Sequence record: PZ239915.1
DNA length: 36,820 nt
DNA from: a phage
Direction: 5' to 3' (one strand)
Part shown: piece after piece, positions 6,127-36,790 of the stretch
Layout: every line of letters begins with the position of its first letter
Position numbering within the stretch: the stretch's first letter is position 1
The notes under the pieces: model-generated
Databases searched by the model: none
The model's input: only the letters and a program-made list of their open reading frames with translations
What the model was told of the DNA's origin: nothing
Program-made: the position numbers and the translations under genes

Positions 6127-6142
6127 TGGAGGCTATATTTTT
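6112..6142. terminator. bidirectional terminator between convergent genes
   Basis: AAAAAA, GCCTCC/GGAGGC stem with TGAT loop, then TATATTTTT; sits between the spanin (+) and a minus-strand ORF. Confidence 0.55.
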
Positions 6143-6476
6143 AGCTAAATAACTCGTCGTCAGCCATTGTTCCTATATTCATCATCTCTTTTATGTACTT
6201 GCTTTCATAACCGTTAAGTGCCTCGAAGTTAAACCCAAATGGCCTATTCAAACTCCCCTTGCTAACAAACTCCCCGCACTTACCATCAATGTAACCCATA
6301 CTAAGCATCTTCGCGCAGAACTCTTTTGAAGCCGCGCTGCAAAACTCTCGATGTGATAAACCCGCTGCCTTGCTGAACCTCTCAGAGTCCTTATGCTGGT
6401 ATATGAATCTCGCCAAATGCTGGCGCGTGAAGTATGAATATGACTCGCAGAACTTAAATATATCGAGAAGAAACAA
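6141..6476 (-). CDS. hypothetical protein (TTG start)
   Basis: Track ORF. TTG start lies 5 nt after a GGGAGG inside the HNH gene 3' end. Alternative internal ATG at 6311. Confidence 0.35.
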   Translation of the reverse strand: MFLLDIFKFCESYSYFTRQHLARFIYQHKDSERFSKAAGLSHREFCSAASKEFCAKMLSMGYIDGKCGEFVSKGSLNRPFGFNFEALNGYESKYIKEMMNIGTMADDELFS

Positions 6477-6478
6477 AG

Positions 6479-7009
6479 CTACCTCCCGTGATTATCATGG
6501 TAAGAAAGCGAGATCTCAGCAGATTTTCTTGCGCATGCTGCATCAAAAATATTATCGTAATAACCAAGACTGGTAGTTTTCCCATTGACCCCTATCTGCG
6601 AAAAGTATTTTCCACGCTTATTTATTGTTACGCCAGATATTCCAGTCTTATTCCTCTTATTCATTGATAGGTTCTTCTGGTTGCATTGCCTTGACACCAG
6701 CCTTAGATTTTCAACTCTGTTGTCATTTCTTATGTGATTAATGTGATCAACTTGCATTCCTTCCGGTATACTTCCATTAATCATCTCCCATATAACCCTA
6801 TGAGCCATATATCTTTCCCCATATATACCAAGAAGTATATAACCACAACCTTTATCATCAAGGCATCCAGCTACCTTGCCAGCGTATTGGGTGTTGCACT
6901 TATTCATTGTTCTAACCTGAGAGAAGTGACTTAAAGGCCTTATTTTCCATATCAGTTTTCCATTTTTGTAATAAAAATATTCATGCCAGTTCATTTCCGC
7001 TAACTCCAT
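6479..7009 (-). CDS. HNH homing endonuclease with AP2-like DNA-binding domain
   Basis: VDHINHIRNDNRVENLR HNH motif; downstream GISGV...YFSQIGVNGK...LGYYD resembles an AP2 domain. Confidence 0.75.
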   Translation of the reverse strand: MELAEMNWHEYFYYKNGKLIWKIRPLSHFSQVRTMNKCNTQYAGKVAGCLDDKGCGYILLGIYGERYMAHRVIWEMINGSIPEGMQVDHINHIRNDNRVENLRLVSRQCNQKNLSMNKRNKTGISGVTINKRGKYFSQIGVNGKTTSLGYYDNIFDAACARKSAEISLSYHDNHGR

Positions 7010-7026
7010 CGTGTTTGCCTATGCAA

Positions 7027-7075
7027 ACAATAACAAAAGCCCACTAGGGGCTTTTAACAAAAAATGCTATTTATC
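7027..7075 (-). promoter_or_regulatory. conserved box variant + -10-like hexamer (minus strand)
   Basis: Minus strand reads TAAATAGCATTTTTTGTTAA, 22 bp containing a terminator hairpin, TATTGT. Confidence 0.4.
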
Positions 7076-7076
7076 A

Positions 7077-8660
7077 TCACCCAAGCAATCTCGGATTAAT
7101 GTAAACTTTATCACCAATCAGGCACGTGTAGTTTTTCTCGTCAAGCATTGGCAGCAAGTGATCTTTAATCTTCGTCATTACCCCCGCCTGGGCTTCGAAA
7201 GGTTTAACCTTGCGCGCCGCCTCGTATAGGGAGCGAATACCTACTACGCCCTTCCCATTTTTGCCTTGCTTGATCAGTATGTCAATCAGCTTGTTCATCT
7301 CTGCACTGTCACCAGCGTGACCAGCGGCGTTAGCAGATGAAAGGTAAGTTTTGCTCAGTTCATTAAATATAATTACAGCCTCCTGCATGGTATCAAGCTC
7401 AATCTCCCTGGACTTCCGCGGACTCCCGCCGTTAGGGTTGAACCAGTTACGAACAGTATGAAGAACAGCCGCAATCCTGATGGCCTGTTTATCAAACTTA
7501 CCCAGCGCGCCTCGCAACATTGTATGTGAATACTTCCCGCCATCAGCAAGGTGAGGTTCCATCTCCTGACGTGCTCGGTTGAGATACTTCATCGCTGAGT
7601 TGCTTACTGTCAGCTTAACATCTTGCTCATTCATTATTTCGTGAACCAGGCGGAAGTAGTCAGCCTTTAGCCCACCATCAATAGGTTCGTAAGTTGAGTC
7701 TCCATTTTCATCAACGAATACACGCTCGCCCAGGAATGACTTTTCACGCACCAGCAGAAAACGTTCCGATACACCGATACCTCGCGCACCAGCATTCATG
7801 ATTGCGTTTATTGTCTCATCTTGCGCAATTACAGAGATGCATCCCATAGCGACGAAACTCATGTTGTTTTCTGCGTTCGCACGCGCAATGGACACGTTAC
7901 CAGCATCCCATGCTTTCAGCACAAGCTCGCTGTTCGTTTTCTTCGAGCCATCACCATAGGTCATACCTAGCAGAGAGTTCACGCTCGTTGCTTCATCAGA
8001 GATAACTGCGAAGTTGCCCTGGCGGTTGTTTATTCGCGCAAGACCTTCAGGCGTCGTATCTGATACTGGAAATACGATATCGCAAAGTTTCTCGAGTTTT
8101 TCCTCTAGTTCCTCTTTCTCTTCGAAGAGAGAAGCCATTTCTGAAGGTGATTTCTCCTGCTTCATCTCTTTGGATAATGCAGATAGTTTAGCCATGATCT
8201 TTTTGCGCTCACGCTTCCGCAACTCATTCAGTCGCTCAGTCTCAGCAATCATTGGAGCAATTGAAAGTGAGTTGATTGCTGATTTACCTGTCGATGGCGG
8301 CTGACTGGTTACGACGTATAGAGAGGTCGGTTGCTGGGTTCCGTGATACTCAACAGTAAATCGCCCCAGCATGGAGGCAGAAATACACCCCAGAAAGTGC
8401 ATATAAGCTGAAGACTCTGGAAATTGAACCGAACGAGCAATATTGGCTGACAGTTTACCAACAACGTCAATATCATTGCCGAGTGAGATTACCGGGTATT
8501 TGTCATTTGCTGCATCAATCTCGACCGGAGCCTTCCAGAATGATTGGGACTGGCGATAGCCATTGGCATTAATGGCGACTCGCAGTGGCGGGAGGTTGTC
8601 TGCGGCAGCAATTGCCATAACCTGTTCAACAGATAGTTTATCTTCGTTGAAATCAAACAT
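7077..8660 (-). CDS. hypothetical 527-aa protein with P-loop-like core
   Basis: Long ORF; deviant Walker A TSQPPSTGKS and Walker-B-like FAVISDEAT in the central region. N- and C-terminal ~45 and ~75 aa are paralogous to the 174-aa protein at 11389..11913. Confidence 0.7.
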   Translation of the reverse strand: MFDFNEDKLSVEQVMAIAAADNLPPLRVAINANGYRQSQSFWKAPVEIDAANDKYPVISLGNDIDVVGKLSANIARSVQFPESSAYMHFLGCISASMLGRFTVEYHGTQQPTSLYVVTSQPPSTGKSAINSLSIAPMIAETERLNELRKRERKKIMAKLSALSKEMKQEKSPSEMASLFEEKEELEEKLEKLCDIVFPVSDTTPEGLARINNRQGNFAVISDEATSVNSLLGMTYGDGSKKTNSELVLKAWDAGNVSIARANAENNMSFVAMGCISVIAQDETINAIMNAGARGIGVSERFLLVREKSFLGERVFVDENGDSTYEPIDGGLKADYFRLVHEIMNEQDVKLTVSNSAMKYLNRARQEMEPHLADGGKYSHTMLRGALGKFDKQAIRIAAVLHTVRNWFNPNGGSPRKSREIELDTMQEAVIIFNELSKTYLSSANAAGHAGDSAEMNKLIDILIKQGKNGKGVVGIRSLYEAARKVKPFEAQAGVMTKIKDHLLPMLDEKNYTCLIGDKVYINPRLLG

Positions 8661-8690
8661 TACTTCTCTCCGTGTTGTTTCTGAGCGGCC

Positions 8691-8741
8691 ATTATATCAA
8701 CGACCGCTTATAATGCGTTATCAATTTGTGCTATTTACAGG
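8691..8741 (-). promoter_or_regulatory. conserved box variant + -10 (minus strand)
   Basis: Minus strand reads TAAATAGCACAAATTGATAACG, 22 bp, TATAAT, upstream of the 527-aa gene. Confidence 0.5.
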
Positions 8742-9121
8742 TATTGCGCCTCGAAGTGATATGTCTCACAAAGAGTGTAAAATCCAACATCCTCGCTACG
8801 GTAAAGCTGCCATGGCTGACCATCCTCATCGTAAATGTATCCGGCAGACTGACCAAGCCCGGCATGAAGATTTACCTGGTAACGCTTGTTTTCTTTAAAG
8901 TCTTTTTTTACTCCCGACTTGTGGTTAACCTTTGTGCAGTAAAGGGTTTTAGTCTTAATGTATTTGCCGCGCTCATTTAAGTAAATCCATTTCCCATCTT
9001 TCTTGATTTGCTCAAATTCCACCTCCTCAACTACACCATTAATCCATTGGGGGGCCTTTTTAACGCGAGCTTTGTAGAGTACGTTTTCGTTGCTAATGAA
9101 GTTTTTAGTTGTTGTTGTCAT
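8735..9121 (-). CDS. hypothetical protein (128 aa)
   Basis: Track ORF; promoter box, -10-like hexamer and CATCGAAACGAAAC leader on the minus strand upstream. Confidence 0.55.
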   Translation of the reverse strand: MTTTTKNFISNENVLYKARVKKAPQWINGVVEEVEFEQIKKDGKWIYLNERGKYIKTKTLYCTKVNHKSGVKKDFKENKRYQVNLHAGLGQSAGYIYDEDGQPWQLYRSEDVGFYTLCETYHFEAQYL

Positions 9122-9156
9122 TTTGTTTGCCCTTGCGTGTTTCGTTTCGATGAGAT

Positions 9157-9204
9157 GAATATACAGGAAAAGCCCCGAAGGGCTTTAGCAATTCGTGCTA
9201 TTTC
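9157..9204 (-). promoter_or_regulatory. conserved palindromic box + -10-like hexamer (minus strand)
   Basis: Minus strand reads AAATAGCACGAATTGCTAAAG, 23 bp containing a hairpin, TATATT, then CATCTCATCGAAACGAAAC leader. Confidence 0.45.
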
Positions 9205-9346
9205 GTGCCTTTTCTATCGCCTTAAGCATAATCTCGTGACTTTCCAGCAAGTCCTCTCGGAACCAGTCTCCGCACGGCCATCCCTTCCCGCTATATGCAC
9301 TTATTACCTCAAGGTCGAAATAATTTATCTCAGATGGTAGTAGCAT
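9185..9346 (-). CDS. hypothetical protein (53 aa)
   Basis: Manual ORF; start overlaps the upstream stop (TGATG); C-terminus NSTNC is encoded by the palindromic box, as in the kinase gene. Confidence 0.35.
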   Translation of the reverse strand: MLLPSEINYFDLEVISAYSGKGWPCGDWFREDLLESHEIMLKAIEKARNSTNC

Positions 9347-9549
9347 CAGTAGTCATCCTCATCCTCATCTTCTTGTTCAAAGTCCCACACAATGTATTCG
9401 CCCAATCTTTGAATCTCAGCACCAGAAAGAAAGACACCCAAAGCGAACGATCTGTCGTCATCAGTCTTGAAATAATCTAAAGGATAACGCTCGTAAAACT
9501 TATTAGTTAAGTGTGCAATGTCAAACTTATCTGATTGATTAACCATCAT
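9346..9549 (-). CDS. small acidic protein (67 aa)
   Basis: Track ORF trimmed to the ATG that overlaps the upstream TGA; C-terminal EQEDEDEDDY tail; GAGGTGA RBS. Confidence 0.45.
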   Translation of the reverse strand: MMVNQSDKFDIAHLTNKFYERYPLDYFKTDDDRSFALGVFLSGAEIQRLGEYIVWDFEQEDEDEDDY

Positions 9550-9785
9550 TTCACCTCGTAAAAAGTTGCGATTCCAGGAATAAACATTCCAACCTTCCAG
9601 CCAGCGATAGCAATCCATCCAGAATCGTGCTTGTGCGGTCGCTCAGCGCCATTAATCACCCATTCGTTCGGGATTGTCTTCCCGTTAATGATTAGCGGCT
9701 CAGCGTCGTATACAGAGCCTTTTACGAATGGTGTTAAAATCTTCTTGTCGGTACTGGTAATAACGTTAGTGCAGCGAATTTTCAT
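9546..9785 (-). CDS. hypothetical protein (79 aa)
   Basis: Track ORF; GGTGGTAG RBS; ATGA overlap with the upstream ORF. Confidence 0.5.
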   Translation of the reverse strand: MKIRCTNVITSTDKKILTPFVKGSVYDAEPLIINGKTIPNEWVINGAERPHKHDSGWIAIAGWKVGMFIPGIATFYEVK

Positions 9786-9955
9786 TCTACCACCTCAAAC
9801 TCACCAGGGTGAATAACAAGTGGCTTAGATGTGCCATCCATTATTACAACCTTTCCATCTCCGCAATCCATGAGCACATCGTGAACTTCGCCAACCTCAA
9901 TGCCGTAATAATCTGGCGTGTAAATCGTGTCAAACTTAACAATCTTAATTTTCAT
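9782..9955 (-). CDS. hypothetical protein (57 aa)
   Basis: Manual translation (MKIKIVKFDTIYTPDYYGIEVGEVHD...); stop overlaps the next start. Confidence 0.35.
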   Translation of the reverse strand: MKIKIVKFDTIYTPDYYGIEVGEVHDVLMDCGDGKVVIMDGTSKPLVIHPGEFEVVE

Positions 9956-9965
9956 ATCTCAAGCC

Positions 9966-10145
9966 TCAAATAAATGGTAAGCATTCTTCGCAGCCAAGCC
10001 CATCGCAGCACATGAATTCATCCTCTGACTGGAATTGCTTAGCCAAATCTATGTCCAACTTTCCGAGCACCACAAGGTCGGTGTAATCTTCGTTAAGTCC
10101 AATCAGTGCGCACTCGTGGCGTAACTCATCTTTATCAATCTTCAT
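9966..10145 (-). CDS. hypothetical Cys-rich protein (59 aa)
   Basis: Manual translation; GAGGGGAT RBS; C-terminal CCDGLGCEEC cluster suggests metal binding. First gene of the leftward unit next to the control region. Confidence 0.35.
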   Translation of the reverse strand: MKIDKDELRHECALIGLNEDYTDLVVLGKLDIDLAKQFQSEDEFMCCDGLGCEECLPFI

Positions 10146-10846
10146 ATCTATCCCCTCGTTGTTGATGAGTTAACTATAGCCACACCATACCATAATGTCT
10201 TTAGCAAAAAGTGCCATTCGTTAGATTTATGTATTGTTGCAGATATTGCAATGATTCACATGATTATTGCACATACAGCAATATTGCTTCAGATGCAATG
10301 ATGTTTTTGATTGTTGCGAGATTTGTAATGATTGATGCGTGAGGTGAATGAAAGATGGATGGACTACCATACAAGTTGATTTTACCAATCGATGAGCCAT
10401 TCTTGTGATATACGAGTAACCCACGTATACCAAGTGTCGTCACAAAAGTTAGTGGGCACTAACCTACGTTTTTACGCGAGATATACACACGATATACATT
10501 AAAATATCTATATATATCAACCTTTTACTTTATTATTATTATTATTATTATATATATGTATACTGCGTATACCGATCATTGGTGAGATAATTGATATGTT
10601 CCGCGCAGATATTCTGTCACCTGTAGGAAAAGGATGACACTGTAGGAATAGATAGGCATGCATGCGGCCTGGTGGGTAAAAAAGTGTATACACGGCGTAC
10701 GCGCAATATACATATAGAGATGATGCGGTGCTAGAGGCGGTTTTGCGTATTAGGTTAAAAATATACAAAGAAATACTTTGACTAACGCGTAAATCTGATG
10801 CAATATACCAATCACTGAAACGAAGTACACAACAACGAGGTTATAC
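10146..10846. promoter_or_regulatory. divergent intergenic control region (candidate operators/origin)
   Basis: About 700 bp with no credible ORF between divergent gene sets. Contains two ~24-bp repeats ATTGTTGC(A/G)AGAT(A/T)TTG(C/T)AATGATT at 10232 and 10309, palindromes GCAATATTGC and GTGTATACAC, a (TTA)7 tract at ~10530, and CTGTAGGAA x2 at 10621 and 10640. Confidence 0.5.
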
Positions 10847-11389
10847 ATGAATGAAGTAACGCTTGGTGAAGTAATCAGGAATATGGTAAGTAAAGCCATG
10901 GAGTCCAGCAGTGGTGAGTTTAAGGTTCCTGTAAGGGAAATATTCAAGGTGCTTAGAGGTCGGGATTATCCTGAGCTAAAGTATGATGTTGAAACTGATG
11001 AGATCATCAACCTTAAGGAGCGGTCAATTCCAGAATTGAAGAACTCATACATTTACAATACGGTATCAAGGATGCCTCAGCTAAGAGTTGCAGGAAAGCA
11101 TGCTAAGCACAAGATAATCTGGATTGATGATGATGGTGAGCAGACGAGTGCAAAGCAATTCGACGGTGACGGTGCAGATAAGTATCTTGTAATCCAGATC
11201 TGCGATGGTGAACATAAGAAGAGCGAGAGCGCCAGGCGAAAGAGAGATAGCGACGCTGCTGTTATTGAATCATTCAAGTCAAGACTAATGAAGGTAGTAC
11301 CTAGCGTTATGGACTTAGATGGTGAGCAGAAGGTTGGCGCAGAGATTGCTATCGGTAGATTTTATGATTTGATTAAGGATGCTAAATAA
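10847..11389 (+). CDS. hypothetical protein (180 aa)
   Basis: First ORF of the rightward unit after the control region; GAGG RBS; stop overlaps the next start. Confidence 0.55.
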   Translation: MNEVTLGEVIRNMVSKAMESSSGEFKVPVREIFKVLRGRDYPELKYDVETDEIINLKERSIPELKNSYIYNTVSRMPQLRVAGKHAKHKIIWIDDDGEQTSAKQFDGDGADKYLVIQICDGEHKKSESARRKRDSDAAVIESFKSRLMKVVPSVMDLDGEQKVGAEIAIGRFYDLIKDAK

Positions 11390-11913
11390 TGTTTGATTTC
11401 AACGAAGACAAATTGACGGATGAACAGATTATGAGTATTGCAAAGCAGGATGGAATTCCACCGCTACGGATTGCAATCAATGCAAATGGGTATCGGCATG
11501 TTCAGCACCTCTGGGGCCAGCCTGATGCATCGGGAGTCTACATAGATGAAGAGCTGGGAGTTCTGATTAAGTTGATTAGGAAAATGGCAAGGAACGGGAG
11601 GGGAGTGGTGGGTGTCAAGTCTGTACACGAGGGCGCTCGCAAGATTAAGCCGTTCGTAGGACGCTTTGATGTCATGCGCATAATCAAGGATGAACTAATC
11701 CCAGCACTTGATAAGATGAATCTCACATGCCTCATTGGCGATAAGATTTATGTTCATCCGGCAATCATTGATGAGTACTGGCAGCCTAACTTCAAAACTT
11801 ACGAAGGTGAACATGCTAGTAGACTACCATACCACTTGCGGTACAGCGAGGAAGAGGTTGAGGTGGCCATTGAGTTCTATAGGAAAGCTAAATCACTACT
11901 GAATGGTAAATAG
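11389..11913 (+). CDS. short paralogue of the 527-aa protein (N- and C-terminal modules only)
   Basis: MFDFNEDKL...PPLRIAINANGYR and GRGVVGVKS...KPF...TCLIGDKIY match both ends of the 7077..8660 product; first 20 nt are identical to that gene's start. Confidence 0.6.
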   Translation: MFDFNEDKLTDEQIMSIAKQDGIPPLRIAINANGYRHVQHLWGQPDASGVYIDEELGVLIKLIRKMARNGRGVVGVKSVHEGARKIKPFVGRFDVMRIIKDELIPALDKMNLTCLIGDKIYVHPAIIDEYWQPNFKTYEGEHASRLPYHLRYSEEEVEVAIEFYRKAKSLLNGK

Positions 11914-11953
11914 CACTTTTTGCCTAACGCGGTAATGCCATGGATGGCATAAT
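11908..11953 (+). promoter_or_regulatory. conserved box variant + -10-like hexamer
   Basis: AAATAGCACTTTTTGCCTAA, 22 bp, CATAAT. Confidence 0.45.
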
Positions 11954-11992
11954 AGCCTCATCGAAACGAGATACGTAAATTAGGGATTTAAA

Positions 11993-12211
11993 ATGAGCAA
12001 GACAATCACGCTGCAATGCCTTAAGACAAATAATCCAGAGTTCTTAAAAGGTCACAAATATGTAGCAACTCTGGTAGACGGTAAAACATGGGCAGTTAAG
12101 GGGGGATTCCAGGATTACAAATTCCCACTCGAGCACATTCCTGGTGGAAATCTTGGTTTTGTTAGTAGCTGCCGCTCGGTTAAGTTCGTGTTTGAAGTGG
12201 TAATGAAATAG
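11993..12211 (+). CDS. hypothetical protein (72 aa)
   Basis: Track ORF preceded by promoter box, CATAAT and CATCGAAACGAGA leader. Confidence 0.5.
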   Translation: MSKTITLQCLKTNNPEFLKGHKYVATLVDGKTWAVKGGFQDYKFPLEHIPGGNLGFVSSCRSVKFVFEVVMK

Positions 12212-15730: not shown

Positions 15731-15808
15731 GCTCTGCTAGCTCAATTGGATAGCAGCAACGACCTTCTAAGTCGTAGGTTACTGGTTCGAATCCAGTGCG
15801 GAGCGCCA
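15731..15808 (+). tRNA. tRNA-Arg (anticodon UCU), with atypical D-arm
   Basis: Hand-folded cloverleaf: 7-bp acceptor stem (one G-U), U8, D-loop with GG, anticodon stem ACGAC/GTCGT with loop CTTCTAA (U33, anticodon TCT, A37), T-stem ACTGG/CCAGT with loop TTCGAAT, discriminator G and encoded CCA. D-stem has only 3 good pairs. Confidence 0.75.
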
Positions 15809-23801: not shown

Positions 23802-24231
23802 AAATATTGGGAGCGTTGCTACGTTTGAGAAATCTATTGCTGACTGGATTGACAGGGCCGATAAGGGATTTGAGATTGTGGTGGCTAATACGGTCACTAA
23901 AACAGCTAACGCAATTGTTGACCTTTCGCCCGTCGACACTGGTAGGTTCAAGGCTAACTGGCAAATCACCGCAAACTCACCAGCCCAACAGTCTCTTAAT
24001 GAGTACGACCAGACTGGTGGCCAGACAAAAACATATCTCGCCAGACAGGCCAGGGCAGTTGCCAATTCAAAGGCCACTAGTGTTATTTATATCACTAACC
24101 GACTTGATTACGCTGCTGGGCTTGAGTATGGCGCATCAAATCAGGCTCCAGCCGGTGTTTTAGGCGTGGTGCAAGCAAGGTTGGGTAGGTATTTCCAGGA
24201 AGCAGTAGAGGAGGCGCGTCGTGCAATATGA
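23794..24231 (+). CDS. putative neck / tail completion protein
   Basis: Track ORF trimmed to the ATG at 23794 overlapping the upstream gene end. Confidence 0.45.
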   Translation: MARNIGSVATFEKSIADWIDRADKGFEIVVANTVTKTANAIVDLSPVDTGRFKANWQITANSPAQQSLNEYDQTGGQTKTYLARQARAVANSKATSVIYITNRLDYAAGLEYGASNQAPAGVLGVVQARLGRYFQEAVEEARRAI

Positions 24232-36743: not shown

Positions 36744-36790
36744 ATAATACAACCGTCAGTGAGGAATGTCTTTAGCTATTCGTGCTATTG
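36744..36790 (-). promoter_or_regulatory. conserved box variant + -10-like hexamer (minus strand)
   Basis: Minus strand reads AATAGCACGAATAGCTAAAG, 23 bp, TATTAT, then CCATCGAAACGAAACGAAA leader before the lipoprotein gene. Confidence 0.45.

Follow-up and report, generated by a model that had tools for sequence, protein, structure and literature searches.

DUF3987 proteins are divergent, MCM-related helicases of superfamily 6 (SF6) with a C-terminal winged helix, and have been proposed to serve as replicative helicases of phages (Kazlauskas et al., PMC4889955). Unwinding has been demonstrated for one member, the PriCT-DUF3987 protein AgaPH, which is a Walker-dependent 5'-3' helicase (PMC11724360). 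The present analysis concerns a pair of related genes, one long and one short, on opposite strands of a phage DNA of 36,820 nucleotides (sequence record PZ239915.1; this whole stretch is called the window). Judged by sequence and predicted fold, the short gene derives from the long one, which encodes the MCM-like replicative helicase of the phage, and has lost the motor. The two open reading frames (ORFs) are present as described in the original prediction, which was made from the letters of the window:

7077-8660, minus strand: long gene, putative DUF3987 / MCM-like (SF6) replicative helicase, 527 residues (ORF, Pfam, PHROG, AlphaFold2 (AF2) model, Foldseek)
11389-11913, plus strand: short gene, putative motor-less paralogue, 174 residues, phrog_7327 (ORF, PHROG, AF2 model, homologues, ratio of nonsynonymous to synonymous substitution (dN/dS))

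The window belongs to a T1-like coliphage of the Drexlerviridae, subfamily Braunvirinae. Positions 7000-12000 match 179 phage records in a megablast search, the best being BEK6, 2725-N35 and JeanPiccard (Bas02). The 527-residue and 174-residue proteins and the DUF7174 protein encoded upstream of the latter are all 100% identical to their counterparts in Escherichia phage vB_EcoD_SU57 (MT511058).

The long protein is an MCM-like helicase

The long protein matches the Pfam family DUF3987 (PF13148) over residues 81-432 with an E-value of 3e-41 (142.1 bits against a cut-off of 27), and the PHROG family phrog_2373, 'DNA helicase', with an E-value of 4e-258. Phage T1 holds the same helicase gene, ST9, with 57% identity. 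Four elements of the long gene are relevant to the comparison with the short one:

8520-8660, minus strand: helicase N module, residues 1-47, three short helices (AF2: 11-21, 25-33, 36-41), isoelectric point (pI) 4.75 (BLASTP, AF2)
8280-8309, minus strand: Walker A motif or P-loop TSQPPSTGKS, residues 118-127 (invariance among homologues)
7986-8012, minus strand: Walker B motif FAVISDEAT, residues 217-225 (conservation among homologues)
7080-7316, minus strand: helicase C-terminal winged helix, residues 449-527, pI 9.3 (BLASTP, AF2, PMC4889955)

Residues Q120, P121, P122, S123, G125, K126, S221 and E223 are invariant in 33 helicase homologues with identities down to 34%, and D222 is kept in most of them. 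The Walker A pattern GK[ST] and the Walker B pattern (D)E are found as PPSTGKS and ISDEA. TSQPPSTGKS, which had been called a deviant Walker A motif, is indeed present, but within the family it is not deviant, being the invariant P-loop signature of DUF3987 in all 33 homologues; the Walker-B-like FAVISDEAT stands as described, with S221 and E223 among its invariant residues.

The AF2 model of the long protein (predicted local distance difference test score (pLDDT) 89.6, predicted TM-score (pTM) 0.87) consists of the N-terminal helices, an α/β core and a C-terminal helix-strand-helix-helix-hairpin arrangement at residues 451-521, in which helices 451-468, 475-482 and 494-508 are combined with strands 472-474, 512-515 and 518-521. 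In the Protein Data Bank (PDB), each of the 50 best Foldseek matches of this model is an MCM2-7 or archaeal MCM subunit, with 1.4e-5 as the lowest E-value. The TM-scores of these superpositions amount to just 0.3-0.38, which indicates that the relationship is distant, and the sequence itself gives only chance-level matches to PDB chains (E-values of at least 0.1). The central region, for which an NTPase had been proposed with structure prediction as the check, thus has an MCM-type AAA+ fold in the model, in addition to its DUF3987 match. Profile and model together identify the long protein as a predicted DUF3987 (MCM-like, SF6) replicative helicase.

The short protein joins the two ends of the helicase

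Residues 1-77 of the long protein align with residues 1-69 of the short protein with 48% identity (BLASTP E-value 2e-20), and residues 454-526 align with residues 55-127 with 51% identity (E-value 1e-24). Similarity at this level, in both the N- and the C-terminal modules, is far beyond chance and bears out the shared modules of the original prediction. The PHROG families are reciprocal, as the long protein matches the family of the short one and vice versa. A joint alignment places residues 1-47 of the short protein on the helicase N-terminus and residues ∼49-127 on its C-terminus, leaving ∼400 helicase residues unmatched. The ATPase core is absent from the short protein, as had been predicted: helicase residues ∼48-450 have no counterpart, and no Pfam match is found. 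The description of the short protein as N plus C module is nevertheless incomplete, since both modules are present but are followed by a further tail of 47 residues that the helicase lacks:

11389-11529, plus strand: short N module, residues 1-47, the most constrained part (BLASTP, AF2; omega 0-0.16 in Braunvirinae)
11536-11769, plus strand: short winged helix, residues 50-127, pI 9.7, the fastest-evolving part (omega 0.15-0.35 in Braunvirinae)
11770-11910, plus strand: short-specific tail, residues 128-174, with conserved W131, LPYHLRYSEEEVE and terminal helix FYRKAKSLLNGK (alignments, AF2)

Here omega denotes dN/dS according to Nei and Gojobori. Among the residues conserved in the two families alike are LRVAINANGYR, W42, the RK.KPF loop and the GDK wing tip. 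In either protein the winged helix is basic and the N module acidic (pI 4.9 in the short protein). Outside the inverted repeat at the gene starts, which is described below, the shared parts have ∼60% DNA identity, and third codon positions 41%, which shows that the duplication is old.

The AF2 model of the short protein (pLDDT 86.5, pTM 0.76) comprises N-terminal helices, a winged helix and the tail. Its winged helix is built from helices 55-69, 76-83 and 95-109, strand 73-75 and a hairpin at 113-122, and the tail contains helices 148-151 and 154-171, the latter a long terminal helix. In structure comparisons of the model the winged helix resembles those of ORC/Cdc6 most. Residues 50-127 are thus predicted to adopt a winged-helix fold. 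Binding of this domain to DNA would have indirect support in its pI of 9.7 and in conserved R84, K87 and K119; its predicted recognition helix is rather acidic. A structure search of BFVD with the short protein returned only family members and helicase fragments. In the tail, W131, F135, K136, Y138, G140, LPYHL, YSE and EVE are invariant among 27 members of the short family.

The short protein matches phrog_7327, of unknown function, over its full length (E-value 1e-77). Scans of Pfam, NCBIfam and PADLOC gave no family for it or for its N module alone. A motif like that of the N module (LT.EE...A..EGLP.LR.A..SSGY+HV) occurs as 3-5 tandem units in the unrelated, alanine-rich proteins P0264 (633 residues) and P0273 (246 residues), one of which carries a C-terminal DnaJ domain; the tandem unit likewise has no Pfam family.

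An origin of the tail from the 111-residue gene that lies beyond the helicase gene (6141-6476, minus strand) was considered and rejected: hhalign of the profiles gave a probability of 0.1%, and shuffling gave p = 0.25, 0.014 and 0.37. Short-protein tblastn alignments cross the helicase stop codon collinearly into the first ∼30 residues of the 111-residue gene. They hint at a read-through fusion as the source of the tail, but this is not supported; as a lead it is weak and concerns just the g290-type tail.

Distribution and losses of the short gene

A tblastn search with the short protein matches 760 phage records, but just 113 of these over at least 80% of its length; the others (∼650 further Drexlerviridae records) align through the helicase only. 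The tail alone matches 95 phage records, namely 88 Escherichia phages, four of Veterinaerplatzvirus and three named Pseudomonas, Campylobacter or plain 'Phage'. Tail-positive records for which the taxonomy was looked up belong to Braunvirinae or Rogunavirinae. Among the records matched, the short gene is restricted to E. coli phages of these two subfamilies, and it is absent from T1. In total 317 homologues of the short protein were found. Hundreds of metagenomic homologues are ∼174 residues long, and 35 clusters were obtained among 1.84 billion cluster representatives, many of them fragment-sized, with just the N module, the winged helix or the tail.

In the survey of relatives that the original prediction had called for, the short ORF is intact in 12 of 20 distinct genomes inspected, disrupted in five lineages and deleted in three phages:

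L012:893-1420, L013:6501-7030, L014:6501-7030, L017:6501-7035 and L008:1066-1620 (loci of related phages): disrupted short-gene homologues, with in-frame stops
L006:1440-1620, L007:1440-1620 and L009:1440-1620 (loci of 2725-N35, T145P1 and AN_ECEAS): short-gene deletions, last 32 codons left

The in-frame stops, numbered by the residues of the window's short protein, are TAA at position 38 in CEB_EC3a, TAG at position 141 in DTL, TGA at position 140 in the 12210I group, TGA at position 34 together with a frameshift in IME542, and both TAA at position 37 and TAG at position 131 in OzMSK. All six lie in the linkers past the N module (34, 37, 38) or past the winged helix (131, 140, 141), and none inside the winged helix. 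The truncated proteins may be tolerated or even selected. UniProt and BFVD entries confirm the truncated annotations, with 140 residues for DTL and 103 and 35 residues for IME542. In 2725-N35, T145P1 and AN_ECEAS the remaining 32 codons directly follow the DUF7174 gene, and the deletion junction lies at a TAGTAG that also provides the DUF7174 stop codon. Because it is repeatedly truncated or deleted in relatives, the short gene is dispensable, yet it is functional where intact.

Selection, recombination and phylogeny

Across loci, the helicases are 91-98% identical to that of the window, whereas the short proteins range from 39 to 100%. When the two genes are compared in the same genome pairs, the short gene has an omega of 0.13-0.30 and the helicase gene one of 0.01-0.04; the pair AHS24 and g6748 gives a short-gene omega of 0.48. 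The short gene is under purifying selection, far weaker than that on the helicase. Among Braunvirinae the constraint is strongest on the N module, intermediate on the tail and lowest on the winged helix, where dN reaches 0.43. Being lineage-restricted, fast-evolving and repeatedly lost, the short gene is probably an accessory gene of the conflict type, whose product mimics the helicase and does not belong to the core of replication.

The loop between helices H2 and H3 of the winged helix exists in at least two alleles, RK.KPF.G and RRAKRIKGGNARL, which swap between otherwise near-identical short genes. The window and BEK6 (L002:7258-7786) provide an example: their DUF7174 proteins are 98.9% identical and their N modules identical despite a dS of 0.25, but their loops read RKIKPFVGRFD and RRGKRINGGNAV, respectively. 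Identical N modules combined with different loop alleles indicate recombination inside the short gene.

Trees of the shared modules place the short copies inside or beside the Braunvirinae/Rogunavirinae helicase clade, far from the T1-type helicases, from which it follows that the short copies derive from that helicase lineage. Gene conversion was checked on the module trees, in which short and long copies form separate groups for the most part; only the short-protein winged helix of Sf12 and g8963, the least diverged from the helicase, lies next to the helicase clade. Gene conversion, slower divergence or a second origin could account for this placement.

Gene order and the DUF7174 gene

The two genes lie in divergent blocks separated by a non-coding control region of 700 base pairs (10146-10846). 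The leftward block, from 10145 down to 6141, contains small genes, the helicase gene, a gene for an HNH endonuclease and the 111-residue gene. The rightward block starts with the DUF7174 gene, followed by the short gene, many small genes, and then the terminase and structural genes:

10847-11389, plus strand: DUF7174 gene (rtp1-like), first of the rightward operon (Pfam PF23796, E-value 1e-44)
10146-10846, no strand: divergent control region, candidate origin and/or pac site (alignment of nine phages, sequence)

In the sequence TAATG the stop codon TAA of the DUF7174 gene and the start codon ATG of the short gene overlap, suggesting that the two are translationally coupled, and in relatives the DUF7174 gene is invariably directly upstream of the short gene. 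The layout in Rogunavirus AHS24 is the same, with the helicase gene on one strand and, across the control region, an rtp1-like DUF7174 gene and then the short gene on the other.

The first rightward gene of T1, ST77 (L005:539-1111), has a sub-threshold DUF7174 match (E-value 2e-4) and a weak AcrF2-like match (E-value 0.005). Since its DUF7174 match is only sub-threshold, the family that precedes the short gene appears to be conserved in position yet highly divergent.

Possible roles of the short protein

The role that is tentatively favoured here, judged somewhat short of an even chance, is that the short protein keeps the docking modules of the helicase and early in infection competes for, or bridges to, the same ligands, thereby modulating helicase loading. 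This is close to the regulatory, adaptor or antagonist version in the original prediction, which is plausible: the gene is intact here, has a conserved tail of its own and evolves under purifying selection. A copy of the helicase gene would have lost the codons for residues ∼48-450, comprising the AAA+ core, so that the acidic three-helix N module became joined directly to the basic C-terminal winged helix, and would have gained the helical tail of 47 residues, which may supply a function of its own. As the second gene of the operon that runs rightward from the origin/pac-like control region, the short gene is probably expressed immediately after infection, together with the DUF7174 protein. 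The two retained modules would correspond to docking surfaces of the helicase: at the origin the winged helix may bind either DNA or a partner in initiation, and the N module may bind a conserved protein, for example the primase, a further subunit of the helicase or a factor of the host replisome. By occupying these ligands without unwinding DNA, the short protein could modulate when, where or whether the helicase loads. The analysis establishes the homology and fold, the gene order, the distribution of the short gene, the selection on it and its losses, whereas ligand sharing, competition and the timing of expression are inferred.

Several points weigh against this role. The winged helix of the short protein has diverged strongly, whereas its helicase counterpart and a DNA block in the control region are almost invariant, which makes it less likely that the two proteins recognise the same DNA sites. 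The C-terminal winged helix of MCM-type helicases often binds proteins rather than DNA. The phage replicates without the short protein, as its repeated loss shows. The rightward early promoter is a putative one, marked by a conserved TTGAC element, and the consensus scan did not call it.

Were the short protein instead an immediate-early decoy or weapon, it would not regulate the phage's own replication but might, by mimicking the exposed end modules of the helicase, soak up a host defence or inhibitor directed against it, titrate a host replication factor or poison the helicase of a superinfecting relative. Such a conflict factor, the main rival to the favoured role but regarded here as rather unlikely, would be in keeping with a gene that lies near the end of the genome, where the early genes are small and evolve fast, has an omega ∼10-fold above that of the helicase, concentrates its variation in a winged helix with recombining loop alleles, and occurs in E. 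coli phages of two subfamilies only. Stops, frameshift and deletions would be expected of a potential liability. On the other hand, no PADLOC or NCBIfam model matched, and the literature on DUF3987, on helicases and primases of Drexlerviridae, on phages SU57, TLS and KanT1, and on Retron-Eco11 and Druantia/Zorya yielded no function or defence trigger for the pair. Furthermore, the helicases of related phages are nearly identical, which makes discrimination between self and competitor hard to picture, and the N module and tail are conserved, not diversifying.

A related and quite unlikely proposal is that of a helicase mimic in an arms race, in which an immediate-early short protein would use the N module and the rapidly diversifying winged helix to decoy a host factor or a defence aimed at the replicative helicase, or to sabotage replisome assembly in the host or in competing T1-like phages. 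The truncations at module boundaries would then reflect escape from a host sensor that recognises the short protein.

The original prediction had also offered a decayed duplicate, i.e. a functionless remnant of the helicase gene. The disruptions and deletions in relatives, the absence from T1 and the many fragment-sized ORFs in metagenomic clusters agree with a decaying fragment, a reading that we consider improbable. Against it, the gene is intact here, as it is in most of the genomes inspected and among the metagenomic homologues, which number in the hundreds. All unsaturated pairs give a dN/dS far below 1, the N modules of the window and BEK6 are identical as proteins, and the novel tail has many invariant positions. 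Synteny and the start/stop overlap with the upstream gene are conserved as well. For this genome, a functionless remnant is largely refuted by the selection data, and decay is a feature of relatives.

The first 20 nucleotides of the long and short genes are identical on opposite strands, as had been noted, and form an inverted repeat that reaches 58 nucleotides at 81% (arms 8608-8665 and 11384-11441, 2718 nucleotides apart). The identical stretch comprises six codons and two bases of the seventh, encodes MFDFNED and offers no more than five two-fold synonymous sites. In nine further phages that have the two genes, their starts match at 14-20 of the 20 positions, in six of these phages at 14-19 only. 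The divergent orientation, with DUF7174 upstream of the short gene, is the same in each of the nine loci where the two genes lie on one stretch, and no inversion isomers were seen. Because the identity encodes the conserved MFDFNED, is not kept in relatives and is accompanied by a constant orientation, we conclude that the repeat results from conservation of the protein and does not serve recombination. The suggestion that it inverts, or recombines across, the 2.7-kb segment between the gene starts is hardly credible: the length and inverted orientation of the repeat and the RecE/Erf-type recombination proteins of the phage family would permit it, but the identity covers the codons of the conserved MFDFNED, the two starts differ at 1-6 positions in those six phages, the orientation never changes, an invertase gene is absent nearby, and 20 base pairs are short for homologous exchange.

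The favoured role, modulation of helicase loading, would be of wider interest. T1-like phages are frequent laboratory and industrial contaminants and are used in phage therapy, but how their replication starts is not understood; an own polymerase, a defined origin and a known helicase loader are all lacking. As a natural end-module construct, the short protein would mark the parts of an MCM-like helicase that act by docking and not as a motor, and could serve as a ready-made dominant-negative or as a probe for ligands, be they origin DNA, the primase or the host replisome. If it is a decoy or interferes with others, a phage can convert a gutted replication motor into a conflict gene; if it is a mimic, it would be a new class of counter-defence or competition factor derived from the phage's own gutted motor. 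If it has no phenotype, the locus provides a well-documented birth and decay of an accessory early gene.

Control region, promoter-like motifs and other features

An alignment of nine phages reveals two conserved elements in the control region: an almost invariant block of ∼130 base pairs at ∼10200-10345 with TTGC/GCAA half-sites and palindromes, and an AT-rich (TTA)n tract at ∼10510-10560, flanked by GTATAC/GATATAC repeats. The wider segment 10470-10720, with its (TTA)6-7/TATATA tract and GTATAC/GATATAC flanks, is conserved in Braunvirinae and Rogunavirinae although the flanking genes diverge. The terminal repeat of T1 begins at the equivalent spot, and an unidentified pac site was placed in this region in the description of SU57 (PMC7718038). 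The control region is a reasonable candidate for an origin (iterons and unwinding element) and/or a pac site. A consensus promoter scan of it gave fewer matches than shuffled sequences.

A family of promoter-like motifs is found throughout the window in 15 copies, against 1.4 expected, and always co-oriented with the genes. The order of its elements is AAATAGCAC-N3-TTGC(TAAA), a spacer of ∼22 nucleotides, TATAGT/TATAAT and a conserved CATCGAAACGA leader. In many copies the spacer contains a GC-rich hairpin and a T-run, and with them a terminator inside the promoter; the upstream box frequently shares bases with the stop codon of the gene before it. The element upstream of the helicase gene and the copies of the family are:

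8691-8736, minus strand: promoter-like element that precedes the helicase gene, with a AAATAGCACAAATTGATAA box, 22 nucleotides and then TGATATAAT (motif family, aligned sites)
635, 3577, 4665, 7057-7072 (minus), 8721-8736 (minus), 9188-9203 (minus), 10204-10219 (minus), 11908: copies of the promoter-like family, first part
12206, 13453, 14127, 18202, 24073-24088 (minus), 30200, 36775-36790 (minus): copies of the promoter-like family, second part

A sigma-54 reading of AAATAGCAC-N3-TTGC was rejected, since the spacing of the halves is two nucleotides too short and AG stands in place of GG. Together with the TATAGT box 22 nucleotides downstream, the motif looks like a phage-specific family of sigma-70-type promoters.

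Between the helicase gene and the conserved 111-residue gene lies the HNH endonuclease gene (6479-7009, minus strand; Pfam HNH_3, E-value 6e-21), whose product also has a weak, below-threshold AP2 match. It is missing from the equivalent spot in JeanPiccard, BEK6 has just small hypothetical ORFs there, and the HNH gene of T1 sits on the opposite side of the T1 helicase gene. The gene at 6479-7009 is probably a mobile homing endonuclease. The stretch of small early genes ahead of the terminase includes a tRNA-Arg gene (anticodon TCT; 15731-15808, plus strand), which is annotated likewise in SU57 and AHS24.

Comparison with known systems

What is known already comprises the helicase, phrog_7327 as a family and the motor-less or truncated initiator companions of eukaryotic viruses. 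Compared with the DUF3987 helicases T1 ST9, N4 dns and AgaPH, the long protein is a full member by its Pfam match, P-loop and Walker B motif, MCM-like fold and winged helix. It differs in that it starts with a three-helix module of 40 residues, whereas other members have PriCT or primase domains. The short protein, which lacks the ATPase core, is not a member; its full-length match is phrog_7327, catalogued without an assigned function, and a derivation of this family from the helicase was not found described in the literature searched. The winged helices of Cdt1, archaeal WhiP and ORC-Cdc6, which function in MCM loading, show a generic likeness to the short protein at the level of the fold, with 7-16% identity. 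Homology with them is not claimed, and the short gene is dispensable in related phages.

Papillomavirus E8^E2 / E2-TR and polyomavirus small t antigen share a module with a replication protein (a DNA-binding or J domain) and add unique sequence. They modulate replication or host factors and arise by splicing or alternative starts. These are products of one gene in eukaryotic viruses, and no kinship in sequence or fold with the short protein is expected. OBPC (UL8.5) of herpes simplex virus 1 (HSV-1) is a C-terminal DNA-binding fragment of the origin-binding helicase UL9 and is thought to compete at the origin. OBPC and the short protein are alike in that terminal binding modules of an initiator helicase are kept while the motor is lost. 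The fold families and virus types are unrelated, and OBPC is an in-frame product of the UL9 gene, whereas the short protein is encoded by a separate, diverged gene on the opposite strand, and combines both termini of the helicase with a novel tail.

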